A stretch of DNA of 52,689 nucleotides. Source: a virus. Lineage: Duplodnaviria; Caudoviricetes. The notes under the pieces were generated by a model that worked only from the letters and a program-made list of their open reading frames with translations, had not been told where the DNA came from and did not search any database. The translations under genes and the position numbers were made by a program. Where the stretch lies: positions 1 through 52,689 of IMG/VR virus record IMGVR_UViG_3300025322_000532. One strand, written 5' to 3'. Positions 11,948-18,191 of the stretch are shown piece after piece (position 1 is the first letter of the stretch; every line of letters begins with the position of its first letter).

Positions 11948-14065
11948 TCAACGCGGGATCGCCGCGGCCTCGCTCTGCGGAGGCCCGAAGGTCTCCGTGA
12001 CCCAGGACTGCTTGGACGGCCCGGGCTTGGCCTCGACCAGTTCCTTGTCCTTGGGTTTCTCCTCATCGACCACGGTCTCTTTGGCCTGCGAGAGCCGCCT
12101 CGACCAGATGGGGATGAACTCCTTGACATCCGCCCGCGGCCGGAGGGTCTCGGCCACCTTCTCGTCATCGCTCTTCGCGAGCGCGGTCAGGGCCTTTCCC
12201 ATCGCCAGGATCGTCTGAGACTGGTCCTTCAGGAGTTCACTCAATTCCTTGAGCTCCAGCTTCTGGGCGACCGCGGCCGCGATCTGATCGACGGTGGGGA
12301 CGGCCTTTAGATCTCCAGGTCCGTCACCCACGCCCGCGCCTTCTTCCTCGTCGCCGCCATCATCGGCCAGGCGCTCCAGCGTGTCTGAGAGTTCCTTGTA
12401 CTCCACTCCCAGACTCTCCAGCGCTTTGCCCCGGCCCTCGGTCTCGCCTTCCAGTTTCTTGACTCGTTCCTCGCCGAGGGCCTCGACCAAGAAACCACGT
12501 CGTTCAGGATTGAATCCCATGTCGGCTATCTCCTTCTGTAGAGTTTCGATGTCGGTCCATTCGTTCGCGGCGTGCTCCCTCGGGAGATAGCTGGCCTCGA
12601 ACGTGCGGTACTTCCGGATCACTCCGTTGGTCTTATCGTAATCGAAATTGATTAGGCCGTGGCTCATGGCGAGATCGTGATGGGCCGCGAGTTGGGTGAT
12701 CCGCTCCGCTTCCTTCGCGGTCAGAGGTCCGCTCATCATCAGGAATCCGTCGGCGTAGTCGATCCAGTCCGCCGGCAGATCGTGGGCACCCTCTTTCGTG
12801 TGCCAGGGCCAGAGTTCCGGCATCCGCTTCGGATCCGCGGTAGCCCACTCCACGAATTCCTTGTGCGCGGCCTCGCTCAGGATCTGGCCGCCCAGCTTCG
12901 GCTCGGCCGGCTTGTCCCGATCCCGGAACTTGTTGGAGACCCATCCAAACCAGCGCCAGGAGCCGTCGAGGGCTTTCTCGACCCGGAATCCCGAGGACTT
13001 ACCTTCGGCCGGTGCCCCAATCCCCATCTTCTTGGCCGCGGCCCGGATCTTAGGCAGTGCCTTGCGAGCGATCTCAGCCGACCTCCCGCCGCGGTTGATC
13101 TGCTGGGAAGCCCGGGCCAGCGCATTGCGGACATGAGCCGCATCGTGGATTGGATAATGGCGCAGCGAACGAGGGGCTGTTCGACCGTCCTCATCCCTCT
13201 TTCCGCCTGGCTCAATGTAGGCGAAGTCCGAGTCTGGCAGGTTGTTGATCGAAGCCCGGGTGATCTTTGCCTTCTGCAGAGCCTCTTTGATCCGGGCGAG
13301 GAAGCCGGTTTCCTCGGTACTCTTATCCTCGGGCGGATTCTCGAGCCGGGTCTTCATCTCTTCGCCAAGCGAAACGATGCGGTCGCCCAGTTCACCCGGC
13401 TCACTCTTGGCAAGGACATTCCCGACCAGCATCTCGAAGTCTCCGGTCACGTCCCGGATGGCTCTGGCTTCATGGAGCGCGTCGCGATACGAGTCCAGCT
13501 CATCGAAGGTCGTGGCCCCGTTCGCGGGCAACTCGGGCATGTGAGACATACCCTCACCGGGATCGGGATAATGGATCATCTTGTCGTCAATGACGGTCGT
13601 GAGGGGGCCGGTTGGCGCAACCACATCCTTTGTCATTGTCGTGGTGGGGCGCACGAAACTCATGATGTCGCCGGGATCCGTGACTCGGATCGATTGGCCG
13701 TCGATGTCTTTCCCGGAAAGCGCGGCTGCAATCTCGGCGGCCGCCTGCTCCTGGCTGACACTCTGATCCAGCGGTTCCTCTTCCGCGAGCACTCTCATGT
13801 CCTCTAGGCTCAGGGGTTCGTTGTTCTCCTGCTTCGTCATCGCCCGGTTGAGCCGCCGATCCTCCAACCGCCGCTGCTTGCGCCGCTGCTTCGCGTTCAA
13901 AGCCAACTCCTTATCGATCAGTTCGTCGATGTCTTTGCCTGAGACAATGGACTCATGGCATACCGCAATCGCCCTTGGTTTGGACAGTCCGGACCGCCGC
14001 TGAATGTCCTCGACACAGCGATCCATCTTCGCCCATTGGCTTTTTGGGACGTTTGAGTACGGCAC
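11948..14065 (-). CDS. Head maturation protease/scaffold polyprotein (705 aa)
   Basis: Central LPDSDFAY...YPIHDAAHVRNAL domain. Prohead-protease-like segment GWVSNKFRDRD...LWPWH...MSHG...FEASYLP...AAN. Acidic, coiled C-terminal scaffold region. Confidence 0.65.
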   Translation of the reverse strand: MPYSNVPKSQWAKMDRCVEDIQRRSGLSKPRAIAVCHESIVSGKDIDELIDKELALNAKQRRKQRRLEDRRLNRAMTKQENNEPLSLEDMRVLAEEEPLDQSVSQEQAAAEIAAALSGKDIDGQSIRVTDPGDIMSFVRPTTTMTKDVVAPTGPLTTVIDDKMIHYPDPGEGMSHMPELPANGATTFDELDSYRDALHEARAIRDVTGDFEMLVGNVLAKSEPGELGDRIVSLGEEMKTRLENPPEDKSTEETGFLARIKEALQKAKITRASINNLPDSDFAYIEPGGKRDEDGRTAPRSLRHYPIHDAAHVRNALARASQQINRGGRSAEIARKALPKIRAAAKKMGIGAPAEGKSSGFRVEKALDGSWRWFGWVSNKFRDRDKPAEPKLGGQILSEAAHKEFVEWATADPKRMPELWPWHTKEGAHDLPADWIDYADGFLMMSGPLTAKEAERITQLAAHHDLAMSHGLINFDYDKTNGVIRKYRTFEASYLPREHAANEWTDIETLQKEIADMGFNPERRGFLVEALGEERVKKLEGETEGRGKALESLGVEYKELSDTLERLADDGGDEEEGAGVGDGPGDLKAVPTVDQIAAAVAQKLELKELSELLKDQSQTILAMGKALTALAKSDDEKVAETLRPRADVKEFIPIWSRRLSQAKETVVDEEKPKDKELVEAKPGPSKQSWVTETFGPPQSEAAAIPR

Positions 14066-14103: not shown

Positions 14104-14595
14104 GCGGAGGGATCGCCGAATCGCGAGCCGGATCAGGTTCTCGTGGTTCTTTTGTCGGCGTCTTGCGATCTCAATATCGAAGTCTCGAGCCTGGGTCCCC
14201 GGATGCTGGACCGCCCGCGCAAACGCCACCGGACCGGAGGCCCCGCCTGCCCTGGAACTGATTATCCGAGGTCGAGTCTTGGCCTTGAAACCAGTCTGGA
14301 ACCGGAGCCTACGCGCTCGCCGGGGCCGGATCAAATGCGGGCGAGTTCCGCGGGTGACGTAGGTATACGCCTCCTGGTTTGTGGAAACCAATACCTCCAA
14401 GTCGGCACCCGTCAACCGCGGTCCCTCCTTGCGGAATGACGGCTTGTGCTCCCAGGTTTTTACCGTCTTCTGAAAGTCATCCCGAATGATATTGCCGGTG
14501 TGATCTAGCGCGTCCTTGAGTTCACGCTGAAGCCGGGCCAGATCGATCAGCTTGGCGACCTTCGGCAGGATCGGAATGAACTTGATGTCAGCCAA
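14095..14595 (-). CDS. Putative neck/head-completion protein (HK97 gp10-like, basic)
   Basis: Y..VTRGTRPHLIRP...LRF...VQHPGT motif typical of this class. The TTG start at 14595 sits just upstream of the previous stop; exact start uncertain. Confidence 0.6.
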   Translation of the reverse strand: MADIKFIPILPKVAKLIDLARLQRELKDALDHTGNIIRDDFQKTVKTWEHKPSFRKEGPRLTGADLEVLVSTNQEAYTYVTRGTRPHLIRPRRARRLRFQTGFKAKTRPRIISSRAGGASGPVAFARAVQHPGTQARDFDIEIARRRQKNHENLIRLAIRRSLRLT

Positions 14596-16261
14596 CGGGA
14601 ACCCACTCGTCTTCCAAGAAGAGCTCAATCTGACAGCGGCAGTTCGAATTGTGGGAAATCAAGCCTTCAACGATGAAGGAATGATCTTCTTCTACCCGGA
14701 GGTCATAGAGCGGAGTGCCTGCCAGTAGTGCTCCAGTGAGCAATACTTGTTGGGGCGTTCCTTCCGAGGTCGTTTCCAGAATTCTTTTCCGCAGATGACG
14801 CAATGATGAGCCATTCGCGTATTTGGCCGGGGATGAAGTCTCGCGTGTTCGGAGCTTGTAAGGAGCTTTAAGTTCTCTAAGCGATCGTCGGTCGGATCGT
14901 GATCGACGTGATGAATAACCATCCCTTTCGGAATAGATCCATGTGCCACCATCCATACCCATTGATAACGGTAGATCGTTCTCCTCTTCGCGCCATCCCA
15001 AAAAAGAGCATATATCCGTCCGTCCAATTTCTTGTTTCGGAAATGTTCCTTCCTTAGATCGTCGAAAGCCCTCCTGCGCTGGATTCCAGCTTGTCGGATA
15101 CCACTCAGGATGCGTTTGCGTTGATTGACGTTCCGCCATTGGAGTTTGGCTTTGCGGGACATGCCGCAGCTCAGACATTCGTCCGCGCGAAAGTCTTTCT
15201 TCTTTCCACAGTGGCAAATCCGAGAACAAGATGTACAGATGTCCGACTGGCGATCCTTGCGATAGCTTGTCCCGCATCGCGTACAGATTTGAGGCATAGT
15301 CTAGAGTATACACCGACAACCGTTTATTGGCTATGTTATCCGTCCTCTGCCAACCGAATTGAGTAAGCCACCGATGATCTGACGTGCAACCGATCCATTC
15401 ACCGCTGGGAGCTAAGAGCCAGGCCTGTCGGTGTATAGGTCTTGAAAAGCTGATGATCGTCTCCAAGACAGTACGCCAACGACCTCGATGAGTAAGAACC
15501 TGATCTCCAATTACCACGTCACGAATTGGTATCTGGCCTCTATTTGTCAGAACGCGGGAATTAGAAGTTGTGATGCAATGGCATTGATCCGAGCCGTCCG
15601 CTGGCAAGCCGCCAGTGAGAGCCAGCATCTCATTCCACGAGCCGTACTCGCGGGCCTTCGGCGGGCAGGTCGCGCAGTGCTGGGCACCGGGATCGAGTAA
15701 TCGCCGCACCGGAACCGTATCCGCTTGCAAGCTCTCACGCATCGATTCCTGAACCCCGAGCCACACCGCGGTCCAGTAGGCCCCGGTATACAACCCGACC
15801 CGGCTCGCCCAGGCCAGGCCGCGGTCATCCGCGAGCTGGCCGAGAGTCAAGCCACCGACTTCGGGATCGCTGAGGTCCGCTCCGATGTAGGGGAGCAAAC
15901 TACTGATCAGGAACCCGGAGTTGAGGTTCAGCGCGGCTGCCAGCGCGACCGCTTGGGCAATCCCGGACCCTGTCCCGAACCCCAGCTTGAACGCGTTCGG
16001 GAATTCTTTGCGGGCCAGCTGATCGAGCTGGACTTCCAGGTCAACCAGCGCGGTGGCGACCGCCGCATCATCGGACAACGAGAGCGCGGAGTAGGCCGCG
16101 ATCCACGCCAAGAGAACGGCAGTCAGCTTCCGACGGTATTCCTCCGTCTCCTCTTCGGCAAGGCCGGGTTCGCCGATCAGTTGCTTCTGCCAAACGTCTG
16201 AGGCTTGTAGTAGTTCTAACGAGGCCTGAATGACCCGCGAAGAATCAGCAATGATCATCAC
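14588..16261 (-). CDS. MuF/gp7-like minor head protein interrupted by an intein (557-aa precursor, ~247 aa spliced)
   Basis: HCATCP...QCH/SNCRC. Splicing restores a CHSNCRC motif resembling the MuF HPNCRC motif. Confidence 0.75.
   Translation of the reverse strand: MMIIADSSRVIQASLELLQASDVWQKQLIGEPGLAEEETEEYRRKLTAVLLAWIAAYSALSLSDDAAVATALVDLEVQLDQLARKEFPNAFKLGFGTGSGIAQAVALAAALNLNSGFLISSLLPYIGADLSDPEVGGLTLGQLADDRGLAWASRVGLYTGAYWTAVWLGVQESMRESLQADTVPVRRLLDPGAQHCATCPPKAREYGSWNEMLALTGGLPADGSDQCHCITTSNSRVLTNRGQIPIRDVVIGDQVLTHRGRWRTVLETIISFSRPIHRQAWLLAPSGEWIGCTSDHRWLTQFGWQRTDNIANKRLSVYTLDYASNLYAMRDKLSQGSPVGHLYILFSDLPLWKEERLSRGRMSELRHVPQSQTPMAERQSTQTHPEWYPTSWNPAQEGFRRSKEGTFPKQEIGRTDICSFLGWREEENDLPLSMGMDGGTWIYSERDGYSSRRSRSDRRSLRELKAPYKLRTRETSSPAKYANGSSLRHLRKRILETTSEGTPQQVLLTGALLAGTPLYDLRVEEDHSFIVEGLISHNSNCRCQIELFLEDEWVPVG
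14692..15297 (-). CDS. HNH homing endonuclease with Zn fingers, nested in the +1 frame inside the intein (201 aa)
   Basis: YRYQWVWMVAHGSIPKGMVIHHVDHDPTDDRLENLKLLTSSEHARLH (HNH_3-type). N-terminal CxxC pairs and C-terminal CVICGKEF...KYCS. Confidence 0.85.
   Translation of the reverse strand: MPQICTRCGTSYRKDRQSDICTSCSRICHCGKKKDFRADECLSCGMSRKAKLQWRNVNQRKRILSGIRQAGIQRRRAFDDLRKEHFRNKKLDGRIYALFWDGAKRRTIYRYQWVWMVAHGSIPKGMVIHHVDHDPTDDRLENLKLLTSSEHARLHPRPNTRMAHHCVICGKEFWKRPRKERPNKYCSLEHYWQALRSMTSG
15305..15333 (-). promoter_or_regulatory. Putative intein-internal promoter for the nested HNH (leaderless)
   Basis: TAGCCA-17 bp-TATACT, ending 7 nt before ATG 15297; no SD sequence. Confidence 0.5.
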
Positions 16262-16617
16262 ATCAGGAGCAGATCTTCCTCGTCCTGCTCCAGTAACCGT
16301 TCCAGCCGTTTCTGTTCAACGGTCTTAAAGTAGCCCCGCCAGTAATCTTTCGCCGACCGTTGATCGCCGGCTTCGGCCTCATTCATCATCGCCGCGGCCC
16401 GGAGCCGCGCCTCGGTTGGCGATAGATTAAGAATCTGTCTGAAGTAGTCGATCCAGAAATCCAGGACATCCCGATGCCAGCGGAAATAACGCCGCCGATC
16501 AATTCCGGGCAGAACGAGAACGCCCCCGGCCACAGCCACAACCTCGGGAGCCGGAACCGGAGGCACCGCGGCGGTCGTCGTGAACGACCAGAGGAGCGAG
16601 CTATCAAGGACATCCAT
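16258..16617 (-). CDS. Hypothetical protein
   Basis: 119-aa ORF overlapping the MuF-like start. Confidence 0.6.
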   Translation of the reverse strand: MDVLDSSLLWSFTTTAAVPPVPAPEVVAVAGGVLVLPGIDRRRYFRWHRDVLDFWIDYFRQILNLSPTEARLRAAAMMNEAEAGDQRSAKDYWRGYFKTVEQKRLERLLEQDEEDLLLM

Positions 16618-16623
16618 TCCACG

Positions 16624-17976
16624 CTAGGCCGGATCGATCGAGGAAACCGGATCGCCCGCCGCCGTAGCAACCGCCGCGGTCCAGTCCACGGTCGCATCAT
16701 CCTCTTCATAGACCGTCAGCGTCCCGGCCGCAATGGCCCGCCGGTTGCGGAGAATCCGTAGCGCTTCCTGAACCGTTCGGCCGCCATCAGCGCCACTGGC
16801 GAGGGATCGAAGCAGAATCCGATCCGCGATCTCTTGGCCCGCGTCGGTCGCCAAGGCATCGGCATCTACGGCGCCCGTAGCAATCACTAGAGCTGTGATG
16901 ATGCCAGCGACCATTGCCCCGACTGAGGAGTCCATGCGGCCTCCAACGAGGGCAGCCGGAATCCGAGTCTGGATGTCATCGGTGTCAGCCTGAACGGTTG
17001 CCAAAGCGGACGCATCGGCTTTGTCCGAGAGTTCAAGTCCTGTGCTTCCAGCTCCCAGATGACCCGCGATCAACTCGTCCCAGACCGCGTCCGCAATTTC
17101 GGCTCCCGCATCCGCAGCCAGCAAAGCCGCGGTCAAGAAGGCCGCATCGAACTGCGCGGTCCCGAGGGCACCAAGCGCGTTATCCAGATCAATCCCGGCC
17201 TCGCCGCCCACCGCCACGTCCAACGTGCGCCCAGCAACGGTAGGTGCAAGTCGTGTCGTAACCGCGGCATCAAGATTTGGAATCTCAGCTGCGCTTAGCG
17301 TACCGCTAGTATTGTCTAGATCAATCCCGGCTTCTCCTGCTACTGTGACATCCAGTGTGCGGCCTGCTACTGTTGGAGCGAGCCGAGAGGTGATAGCCGC
17401 ATCAAGGTTCGGGATTTCTGCCGCGCTCAAGGTACCTACGGTGTTATCCAAATCGAGTCCAGCCTCGCCCGTAGCCGCAATATCAAGCGTCCGTCCAGCG
17501 ACAGTCGGAGCCAGACGGCTTGTAATAGCCGCATCTAAATTCGGGATCTCCGCAACACCGAGTGTCCCAGCCGTATTGTCGAGATCCAGCCCAGCTTCAC
17601 CGGCGGCAGTCACGTCCAGGGTCCGATCTGCGGTCGTCGGACGCAAAGCCGACCGGGCCTCGATGCTGAATTCGGCCACTACGTAACCAACCACAGAACT
17701 CCCGCCCACCGTACCGGTCGTGATCACCAATTGATAGTTCGAGGCCGTGGCAAACCCATTCCCACCAGTCGCTACAACGCGGACATTATGCAGGCCTGTT
17801 ACGCCGTCGAAATCCACAGTCAGCGTAATGCCTGCCGTAATTTGAACCAAGCTGTTGTCCACATAGGCGGAGATCACCGGCGTACCCGCCAGCGTCGTCG
17901 GCACCCCAGAGGTATTCACAGTGGTGAACTTGGTATCGAACGTCTTGCCCAGAGAGAAATCGCCGATGTAGCTCAT
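16624..17976 (-). CDS. Putative virion accessory/fibre protein with 44-aa tandem repeats (450 aa)
   Basis: Ala/Gly/Thr-rich. Repeat unit RLAPTVAGRTLD.....EAGLDLDNT.GTL...EIPNLDAAITS; IADAVWDE motif. Confidence 0.7.
   Translation of the reverse strand: MSYIGDFSLGKTFDTKFTTVNTSGVPTTLAGTPVISAYVDNSLVQITAGITLTVDFDGVTGLHNVRVVATGGNGFATASNYQLVITTGTVGGSSVVGYVVAEFSIEARSALRPTTADRTLDVTAAGEAGLDLDNTAGTLGVAEIPNLDAAITSRLAPTVAGRTLDIAATGEAGLDLDNTVGTLSAAEIPNLDAAITSRLAPTVAGRTLDVTVAGEAGIDLDNTSGTLSAAEIPNLDAAVTTRLAPTVAGRTLDVAVGGEAGIDLDNALGALGTAQFDAAFLTAALLAADAGAEIADAVWDELIAGHLGAGSTGLELSDKADASALATVQADTDDIQTRIPAALVGGRMDSSVGAMVAGIITALVIATGAVDADALATDAGQEIADRILLRSLASGADGGRTVQEALRILRNRRAIAAGTLTVYEEDDATVDWTAAVATAAGDPVSSIDPA
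17150..17652 (-). repeat. ~3.7 copies of a 132-bp (44-codon) coding repeat
   Basis: Clear at the protein level; the DNA copies differ at many synonymous positions. Confidence 0.85.
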
Positions 17977-18191
17977 GCTTTTGCTACCGTTCCCTCAATC
18001 AAACGATTGCGCCGGGAAGAGAGCAGGGGTCCCCAGCCCGCGGCCGCCACTTCTTGATAGGCATCGAAATAGATTCGATCCGTGAGCCATTCATCGAAAG
18101 TACCAGTATTGCCGGATCTAGGTTCCAGTGTTCCAAAATAGACCCGATCTGCGATCCATTCATCAAAAGTCCCGGTATCCTGAGCGGCCAC
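17973..18191 (-). CDS. Small protein with internal duplication TGTFDEW..DR.YF x2
   Basis: 72 aa, coupled on both sides (TAGTG and ATGA overlaps). Confidence 0.65.
   Translation of the reverse strand: MAAQDTGTFDEWIADRVYFGTLEPRSGNTGTFDEWLTDRIYFDAYQEVAAAGWGPLLSSRRNRLIEGTVAKA

Follow-up and report, generated by a model that had tools for sequence, protein, structure and literature searches.

An intein whose nuclease lies in a reading frame other than that of its splicing domains is an architecture already in print, known with LAGLIDADG or endonuclease VII-like nucleases in inteins, or with an HNH nuclease in an insertion that is not an intein. Here we describe such an arrangement in the IMG/VR virus record IMGVR_UViG_3300025322_000532 (52,689 bp, estimated completeness 59%), the whole of which is called the window below. 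On its minus strand, a phage head-morphogenesis-like gene is interrupted by what is very probably a bona fide class-1 intein, likely to be competent for splicing, whose HNH homing endonuclease, instead of being a domain of the precursor, is encoded by an open reading frame (ORF) in the +1 frame, from which it would be translated separately.

Actinobacteriophage inteins with a nuclease in a separate frame were described by Gosselin et al. (bioRxiv 10.1101/2025.01.02.630785); the preprint reports endonuclease VII-like nucleases on the same strand and LAGLIDADG or VSR nucleases in antisense, proposes invasion by free-standing homing endonuclease genes (HEGs), and warns that such inteins can be mistaken for decaying or mini inteins. 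A preprint from the Gogarten lab on a dnaX intein presents an out-of-frame LAGLIDADG nuclease with a frame-dependent pattern of selection and disorder, and credits Gorbalenya 1998 as first. For mycobacteriophages, Arsenault et al. 2025 (PMC11855218) describe a ShiLan-type out-of-frame HNH in a DNA methylase insertion without splicing domains; relatives have a similar free-standing HNH beside the insertion-free gene, and leaderless initiation is proposed for the hidden ORF. In canonical HNH inteins the nuclease is in frame (Dalgaard et al. 1997, as cited in the preprint literature). A full-text literature search, which did not extend to supplements (where the actinophage tables could hold cases), found no account of a bona fide intein in a MuF-like or terminase gene that has an HNH_3 ORF within it in another frame.

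Further cases are relevant. A genome announcement is said to mention another methylase with an out-of-frame HNH. The T4 mobE gene is reportedly a free-standing HEG aimed at an intron insertion site, a case of collaborative or trans homing, and the same is said of a cyanophage psbA case and of work by Bonocora and Shub in 2009. Fractured genes, reportedly described by Dassa et al. in 2009, are said to have a split intein whose two parts flank a free-standing endonuclease gene.

The intein and its nested HNH reading frame

The features of the locus, all on the minus strand, are as follows; L001 is an IMG/VR relative in which the element has 85% nucleotide identity to that of the window, and dN/dS is the ratio of nonsynonymous to synonymous substitution rates.

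14588..16261, minus strand: precursor ORF of the host gene, 557 residues; head-morphogenesis-like, possibly MuF-like, carrying the intein
15578..16261, minus strand: N-extein, 228 residues, C-terminal end ...GSDQCH; dN/dS against L001 0.098
14648..15577, minus strand: class-1 intein, 310 residues; Cys1, block B T65..H68, block F/G ...EDHSF...SHN, +1 Ser
15299..15577, minus strand: N-terminal splicing domain (intein residues 1-93), where selection acts on the intein frame
14692..15297, minus strand: HNH_3 homing-endonuclease ORF and dual-coding stretch, ATG at the 15297 end; 201 residues plus TAG stop, +1 frame
14648..14752, minus strand: C-terminal splicing region, intein residues 276-310, blocks F and G; overlapped at its start by the last HNH codons and the TAG
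14591..14647, minus strand: C-extein, 19 residues, beginning SNCRCQ...

The intein comprises residues 229-538 of the precursor, from Cys1 at 15577 to Asn310 at 14648. It follows the N-extein end ...GSDQCH and itself ends in ...EDHSFIVEGLISHN, directly ahead of SNCRCQ... (insertion site CH|SNCRC). Cys1 is invariant in 7/7 aligned relatives, as are T65 and H68 of the block B TxxH motif; D292, H299, H309 and N310 are likewise invariant across the aligned relatives. The NCBIfam profile TIGR01443 (intein_Cterm) matches with 22.4 bits against a cut-off of 15.6. A structural model of the intein frame (AlphaFold, AF2), with alignments of 7 sequences for this frame and 9 for the HNH frame, has block-mean predicted local distance difference test (pLDDT) values of 78-91 at residues 1-93 and 276-310 and below 50 at residues 94-275. 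The confident parts gave 28 PDB matches at E≤1e-3, those listed being inteins and other HINT-fold domains, with the gp41-1 intein on top (9.4e-6) and the MchDnaB-1, Ssp DnaB, Npu DnaE and Mtu RecA inteins also among them. Coordinates, motifs, TIGR01443 and HINT fold thus agree with the intact 310-residue intein at CH|SNCRC proposed in the initial annotation. A test for a split intein or fractured gene found the host gene undivided, as a single 557-residue ORF.

The HNH ORF begins where the N-terminal splicing domain ends and stops where block F begins. Its extent, its 201 codons and its own ATG are as initially annotated; the stop codon is TAG (14692-14694) and not the TGA originally given. 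This TAG arises within the intein codons V295-E296 at the start of block F (14692-14710, minus strand). Outside the HNH ORF the +1 frame is rich in stops, and the third frame has stops throughout. The +1 product matches Pfam HNH_3 (PF13392) with E=4.6e-15 and 55.4 bits against a cut-off of 24.8, and eleven PHROG HNH families. The intein frame, scanned against Pfam, matches no nuclease family; Intein_splicing (6e-5, score 23.3, cut-off 35.8) and Hint_2 (4e-4, score 21.1, cut-off 28.4) are found below their cut-offs. Of the two profile assignments expected from the initial annotation, HNH_3 in the +1 frame is therefore borne out, and the Hint match in the intein frame is subthreshold. The view that the centre of the intein frame has neither an endonuclease motif nor a stop codon is sustained by the Pfam result and by the count of stops given below.

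In the 9-sequence HNH alignment, H129, H130, D138, N142, H151, H155, C28, C30, C41, C44, C166, C169 and C186 are invariant. These include the catalytic residues H130, N142, H151 and H155, and the family alignment shows no variation at three pairs of Zn-ribbon cysteines. In the C-terminal ribbon of the window HNH, a His takes the place of the Cys that serves the family as fourth Zn ligand. The predicted model of the HNH frame has a mean pLDDT of 83; its closest PDB match is the HNH homing endonuclease I-HmuI (1u3e), a weak match (E=4.6e-3, probability 1.0, template modelling (TM) scores 0.27/0.31). Among cultured phages, the only matches to the HNH alone are HNH genes that stand free, in T7-like and other phages, with <40% identity over about half its length, and a profile search of genome contigs with the HNH alignment found no relative.

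Selection and proposed expression of the overlapping frames

To count stops against expectation, synonymous codons were permuted among equal residues of the HNH ORF and stops were counted in the other frames. Over the overlap, the intein frame is without a stop, although the permutations give 9.5 on average and not one of the 20000 lacked stops; the third, unused frame has 6 stops against 5.0 expected. Seven other nested relatives have 0 stops each, against 3.3-16.5 expected (0-39 of 5000 permutations free of stops), and the free-standing homologs L021, L023 and L024, taken as control, have 6, 21 and 15 stops in the corresponding frame.

Selection was compared between the window and L001, whose inteins are both 930 nucleotides (nt) long and differ at 136 sites with no indels; L002 and L017 have the same sequence as L001 in the compared regions, and the three were counted as one relative. 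In the N-terminal splicing domain, differences at the first, second and third intein-frame codon positions number 12, 3 and 26, and dN/dS in the intein frame is 0.10. Over the overlap they number 53, 19 and 13, the first position of the intein frame being the third position of the HNH frame, and dN/dS for the intein, HNH and third frames is 1.71, 0.11 and 1.23, respectively. In the C-terminal splicing region the differences are 1, 0 and 8, with dN/dS not calculable. At the protein level, the overlap is 85% identical when read in the HNH frame, against 68% for the intein frame and 68% for the unused frame. Because the codon-position differences and dN/dS change by region, there is good support for a selected frame that switches from intein to HNH and back to intein, with the central intein frame apparently selected solely for its lack of stops. 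The dual-coding nature of a stretch of about 600 bp, put forward in the initial annotation, is likewise well supported, both by selection (dN/dS 0.11 in the HNH frame vs 1.71 in the intein frame) and by stop avoidance.

The motif L-P/S-L-S/P-M/V-G in the centre of the intein frame sits beneath the invariant YRYQWVW of the HNH and is its shadow. At the other end of the overlap, variation between the window and L001 occurs in the last six HNH residues (SMTSG vs STISA), although the two agree fully in the intein frame at this place. Selection returns to the intein frame a few codons ahead of the HNH end.

These data bear on the first alternative, that the HNH ORF is a decaying relic and the element effectively a mini-intein with a long junk linker. 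The window ATG, which has no Shine-Dalgarno motif, and the His that replaces the family Cys as fourth Zn ligand in the C-terminal ribbon are what a relic might show. Yet the HNH-frame dN/dS of 0.11 equals that of the extein, every invariant catalytic and Zn-ribbon residue is retained, the predicted HNH fold is confident, and an intein-less allele co-exists, as an active homing cycle would give. The +1 ORF, whose conservation had been in question, is moreover intact in all nested relatives. We consider decay improbable.

Comparative evidence suggests that the HNH is made as a free protein. Its ATG is found at the homologous position in 7/7 nested same-site relatives, 3-4 residues ahead of the first CxxC, and the free-standing L023 and L024 share the HNH N-terminus with the nested forms. 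In the window, a TAG stands in the HNH frame two codons upstream of the ATG. Shine-Dalgarno-like motifs precede the HNH start in L025, L026, L032 and L028 and in the free-standing L021, L023 and L024, and a motif of this kind, 4-13 nt ahead of the first start codon of the open stretch, occurs in 10 of another 29 nested IMG/VR loci (a count made with no formal control). The free product that the initial annotation had envisaged is thus favoured by the conserved ATG, the upstream TAG, the Shine-Dalgarno motifs of relatives and the N-terminus of the free homologs, all of them indirect support.

The second alternative, about as improbable as decay, is that the HNH is not free and that a programmed +1 frameshift near the end of the N-terminal splicing domain yields a fusion of N-extein, HINT-N and HNH. 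It would account for frames that abut at a domain border and for a start with no Shine-Dalgarno motif in the window. The TAG two codons upstream of the ATG argues against such a fusion, as it leaves nearly no space for a shift; the ATG is kept in 7/7 same-site relatives, at the same start point as in free-standing homologs, and Shine-Dalgarno motifs are strong in L026, L028 and L025.

One further feature lies upstream of the HNH start.

15305..15333, minus strand: promoter-like sequence TAGCCA-17-TATACT, with 7 nt between it and the HNH ATG; put forward as a hypothesis only

In a promoter scan this was the sole minus-strand match in 2 kb. Of 10 same-site loci, 7 have a TATAAT-like hexamer (at least 5/6 matches) in the 45 nt upstream, against a background of 7.3% of random 45-nt windows of the same loci; as these loci are related, the hexamer and motif counts are not independent. 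The distance from hexamer to ATG is 7 nt in the window, L001 and L022 and 5 nt in the free-standing L024; in L025, L026 and L023 it is 19-24 nt, with a Shine-Dalgarno motif between. Judged by eye, the upstream region of L020 reads TTGACA-17-TATGCT-7-ATG. In nested copies the hexamer doubles as Y-N or Y-T codons at the end of the N-terminal splicing domain (Y-T in the window). An internal promoter giving a leaderless mRNA for the HNH is conceivable on this basis, and we offer it as a hypothesis that is rather less likely to be right than wrong. If the HNH does have its own -10 box, the mRNA would be leaderless where the box lies 5-7 nt from the ATG, and the nuclease could be made at times not set by the late structural operon. 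The uncoupling from late-gene expression that was initially suggested is speculative, drawing on a promoter-like site that is not enriched and on the comparative pattern.

Relatives, intein-less alleles and a model for homing

A profile scan of metagenomes with the HNH alignment gave 14 loci, 11 of which were examined (L018 and L019 are contigs of L002 and L001, and L030 was left out). At 8 of the 11 (L017, L020, L022, L025, L026, L027, L028 and L029), a second frame on the same strand is free of stops across the HNH and extends into a long ORF. In five of them (L020, L022, L025, L026 and L027), homologous genes carry an intein at this same site, ...|(S/C/T)NC(R/K/L/G)C, with an HNH 37-50% identical to that of the window and always +1 of the intein; L028, in a DNA methylase, and L029, in a terminase large subunit, have the other offset. 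The intein-bearing candidates L004-L013 were dropped as relatives, being unrelated inteins with in-frame LAGLIDADG or other centres in other host genes.

A second scan, of IMG/VR with the 9-sequence HNH alignment, kept 80 loci, and 79 were screened (L031 is a contig of L002). The HNH lies out of frame within a longer same-strand ORF in 34 of the 79, the offset of the long ORF being +1 in 28 and +2 in 6; these 34 loci were not deduplicated, and L073/L075, L074/L076, L085/L086 and L107/L108 share ORF lengths and may be the same element. Six loci have long same-frame ORFs, three of which (L042, L047 and L093) are ribonucleotide reductases with an HNH intein of the classical, in-frame type; another 38 loci have a free-standing HNH, and one is truncated by the contig end. 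Pfam searches with 28 of the 34 nested long ORFs gave a Hint or intein match in 24 and a terminase-large-subunit match in 21; the long ORF of L105 had no Pfam match. At two places each (residues 83-308 and 703-788 in L050), the genes L050:90-3260 and L045:1165-4398 match Hint/Intein_splicing, and they may contain two inteins each. What is new here is the prevalence of out-of-frame nesting among HNH relatives (34/79), together with free-standing relatives beside an intein-less host gene.

Two of the IMG/VR loci are of a different kind. L046 (1263-3176) and L063 (2-784) are N6_N4 DNA methylase ORFs, each with a stop-free insertion that covers an out-of-frame HNH and is flanked by ...RFFY(T/C)A and ...H(K/P)..(K)PL.... 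Pfam gives no splicing-domain match for L046, L063 was judged by its flanks only, and both look like ShiLan-type insertions. They resemble the known out-of-frame HNH insertions without splicing domains (PMC11855218), and they make it reasonable to ask if the window insertion, too, is left unspliced as a tolerated loop. This third alternative is less probable than the two above: Cys1, TxxH, block F/G, HN and the +1 Ser are invariant across 7 relatives, a HINT fold is predicted, dN/dS in the N-terminal splicing domain is 0.10, and TIGR01443 scores above its cut-off.

The free-standing HNH genes with an intein-less host homolog are at L021:1817-3091, L023:659-2097 and L024:2441-5081. The start of the HNH gene lies 82 nt past the stop of the intein-less homolog in L021 and 57 nt past it in L023; the homolog ends ...CLMNCKCHLV... 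in L021 and ...SNCMCDVIFR in L023. In L024, an intein-less homolog on the opposite strand, with the end ...CISNCRCRLV..., converges on the HNH gene and overlaps its end. The 3' end of the host-gene homologs that the free HNH adjoins is the site occupied by the intein elsewhere. The L023 gene is 42% identical to the L025 extein (E=4e-65), in an alignment that ends at the intein insertion point, and in a tree of the HNH proteins the free L023 and the nested L025 are sisters (100/100); only two pairs are resolved in this tree, the remaining same-site clade being unresolved. These observations fit a passage from free-standing HEGs beside their target to the nested form, or the reverse, and we leave aside the direction and the number of nesting events. 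The free and nested pairs could be snapshots of a route to mobile inteins in which the splicing element comes first and the nuclease invades later.

Intein-less alleles of the window gene are also found. L003, from IMG/VR, reads ...DDCH|SNCRCQ... in frame. A contig of sequencing run X12 skips 951 nt of the window and has 21 replacing letters, a net loss of 930 nt that equals the intein length. The same run holds an intein-containing variant contig, and empty and occupied alleles therefore co-occur in one sample. In run X3 a loose end lies at window position 14635, the same place as the X12 gap, and opens with the same replacing letters. The G+C content is about 50% in the intein vs 60-66% in its flanks.

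The least credible alternative, and a virtually negligible one, is an artefact in which two compensating indel errors have put a canonical in-frame HNH out of frame, as the initial annotation had itself allowed: the ORF does span exactly from the N-terminal splicing domain to the start of block F, where an in-frame domain would look alike, but this possibility is excluded by the absence of stops from the intein-frame centre, where an unused frame should show about 9.5 (0/20000 permutations), by the TAG two codons ahead of the ATG in the HNH frame, by a contig of an independent run that is identical with 0 gaps and a variant contig with 104 substitutions, 0 gaps and no indels listed, and by an offset unchanged in relatives at 38-85% HNH identity.

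Several points weigh against reading the locus as a splicing intein with a separately translated HNH. The selection test of the window depends on a single, 85%-identical relative. The Pfam scores for Intein_splicing and Hint_2 are both under the gathering cut-offs, the structure alignments are shallow (7 and 9 sequences), and a Foldseek search with the HNH model gave no HNH match at E≤1e-3, the TM scores to I-HmuI being low. The HNH start of the window has no Shine-Dalgarno motif, the promoter-like site is not above shuffles (1 found, 1.0 expected), and none of the listed sequencing runs that hold the stretch is on record as RNA.

If the locus is nonetheless an intein with a separately translated nuclease, translation of the host frame would give N-extein, HINT-N, an unstructured linker of about 180-200 residues, HINT-C and C-extein. 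The linker sequence would drift freely provided that no stop arises, and splicing would restore the ...CH-SNCRC... protein. The HNH would be translated separately from the conserved ATG, by internal initiation on the host-gene mRNA or on a leaderless transcript from the embedded promoter. During co-infection it may act on the intein-less allele, making a nick or cut close to where NCRC is encoded, and repair would copy the entire intein with its HEG into the cut allele.

A wider proposal is more doubtful and is made tentatively: that out-of-frame nesting is the main and stable association of HNH_3 nucleases with inteins in uncultured phages, that it originated from free HEGs by the 3' end of the target, and that the HNH runs on an independent schedule from its own -10 box. 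For prevalence, the basis is the count of 34/79 nested loci vs 3 clear in-frame HNH inteins, and a +1 offset that same-site relatives keep at HNH identities as low as 37-50%.

The host gene and comparison with known systems

The sole family match of the host protein is phrog_24776, a PHROG of unknown function. Neither the intein-less allele nor the N-extein matches PF04233/Phage_Mu_F or any other Pfam or NCBIfam family, and the 557-residue precursor had no match in cultured phages by tblastn. Among the protein-language-model neighbours of the host protein, Phage_Mu_F clusters account for 13 of 30 Atlas matches (score 0.96, 179 shared features), and one homolog, in L022, has an ART-PolyVal domain. 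Kinship with Phage_Mu_F is a lead that comes from these two observations; the "MuF-like" label of the initial annotation was not confirmed in any hidden Markov model library tried. The homolog (L022:256-3648) is a 1131-residue polyvalent-type protein with the ART-PolyVal ADP-ribosyltransferase domain at its N-terminus, and the nested HNH of its same-site intein is longer (279 residues), with two additional C-terminal Zn-ribbon repeats.

Two neighbours of the host gene on the minus strand of the window were also inspected. The ORF at 16624-17976 (450 residues) has about four protein-level repeats of about 44 residues (...AGRTLD..AGEAG.DLDNT.GTL..AEIPNLDAA.T.RLAPTV...); it has no Pfam or PHROG match, and a tandem-repeat search of the DNA at 16600-18000 was empty. 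Downstream of the host gene, the ORF at 11948-14065 (705 residues) has as its sole match phrog_16160, of unknown function, at residues 298-347. Its ...DFAYIEPGG...RHYPIHDAAHVRNALAR... motif we take to be typical of phage scaffold or protease-type head proteins.

Because gene callers permit one frame per locus, inteins of this kind end up wrongly labelled as degenerate or mini inteins, and six-frame domain scans of intein interiors are worth routine use in phage annotation. The locus adds a statistically strong case, with a different nuclease family and host gene, to an intein class only recently recognised, and in uncultured phages dozens of genes for terminases, head proteins and methylases have a member of the same HNH family nested in another frame. 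Such loci are also natural long (600-nt) overlapping genes in which one frame would be selected merely for the absence of stops.

Canonical HNH inteins, including those of L042, L047 and L093, have a nuclease of the same superfamily at the same position inside the HINT domain. There, however, the nuclease is a domain of the precursor that is freed by splicing, whereas a separate product is proposed for the window. The fractured genes share with the present locus a free-standing HEG tied to an intein locus, which supports the order of splicing first and nuclease invasion later; in them the host is split into two ORFs that are joined by trans splicing, in contrast to the one continuous ORF kept by stop avoidance in the window. 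Collaborative homing resembles the condition of the free-standing L021, L023 and L024, which directly adjoin the intein-less target gene and represent a presumed precursor state; the cases of collaborative homing concern group I introns, and ours an intein.

The ShiLan-type insertion is similar in having an out-of-frame HNH within a stop-free insertion of a phage gene. Unlike the window, which has full splicing blocks and a predicted HINT fold, it has no detectable splicing domain and is thought to stay in the protein. The dnaX intein shows the same dependence of selection on frame across the overlap, omega being low for the nuclease frame and raised for the intein frame, as well as a disordered in-frame centre and a confidently folded product of the alternative frame. 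It differs in its nuclease (LAGLIDADG, in the +2 frame) and in its host, a bacterial chromosomal replication gene, whereas the window has an HNH in the +1 frame of a phage structural gene.

The actinophage inteins of Gosselin et al. have phage hosts and the same layout, with contiguous and conserved splicing domains, a same-strand nuclease ORF between the blocks and a structureless in-frame centre; the genes invaded include those of the terminase large subunit and of minor capsid proteins. Their same-strand nuclease is endonuclease VII-like (IPR004211) and in frame 3, whereas the window encodes, in the +1 frame, an HNH_3 that has Zn ribbons at both termini. The HNH inteins that they describe are in-frame, and the minor-capsid inteins carry antisense LAGLIDADG nucleases; the window, by comparison, comes from an uncultured soil or groundwater phage.

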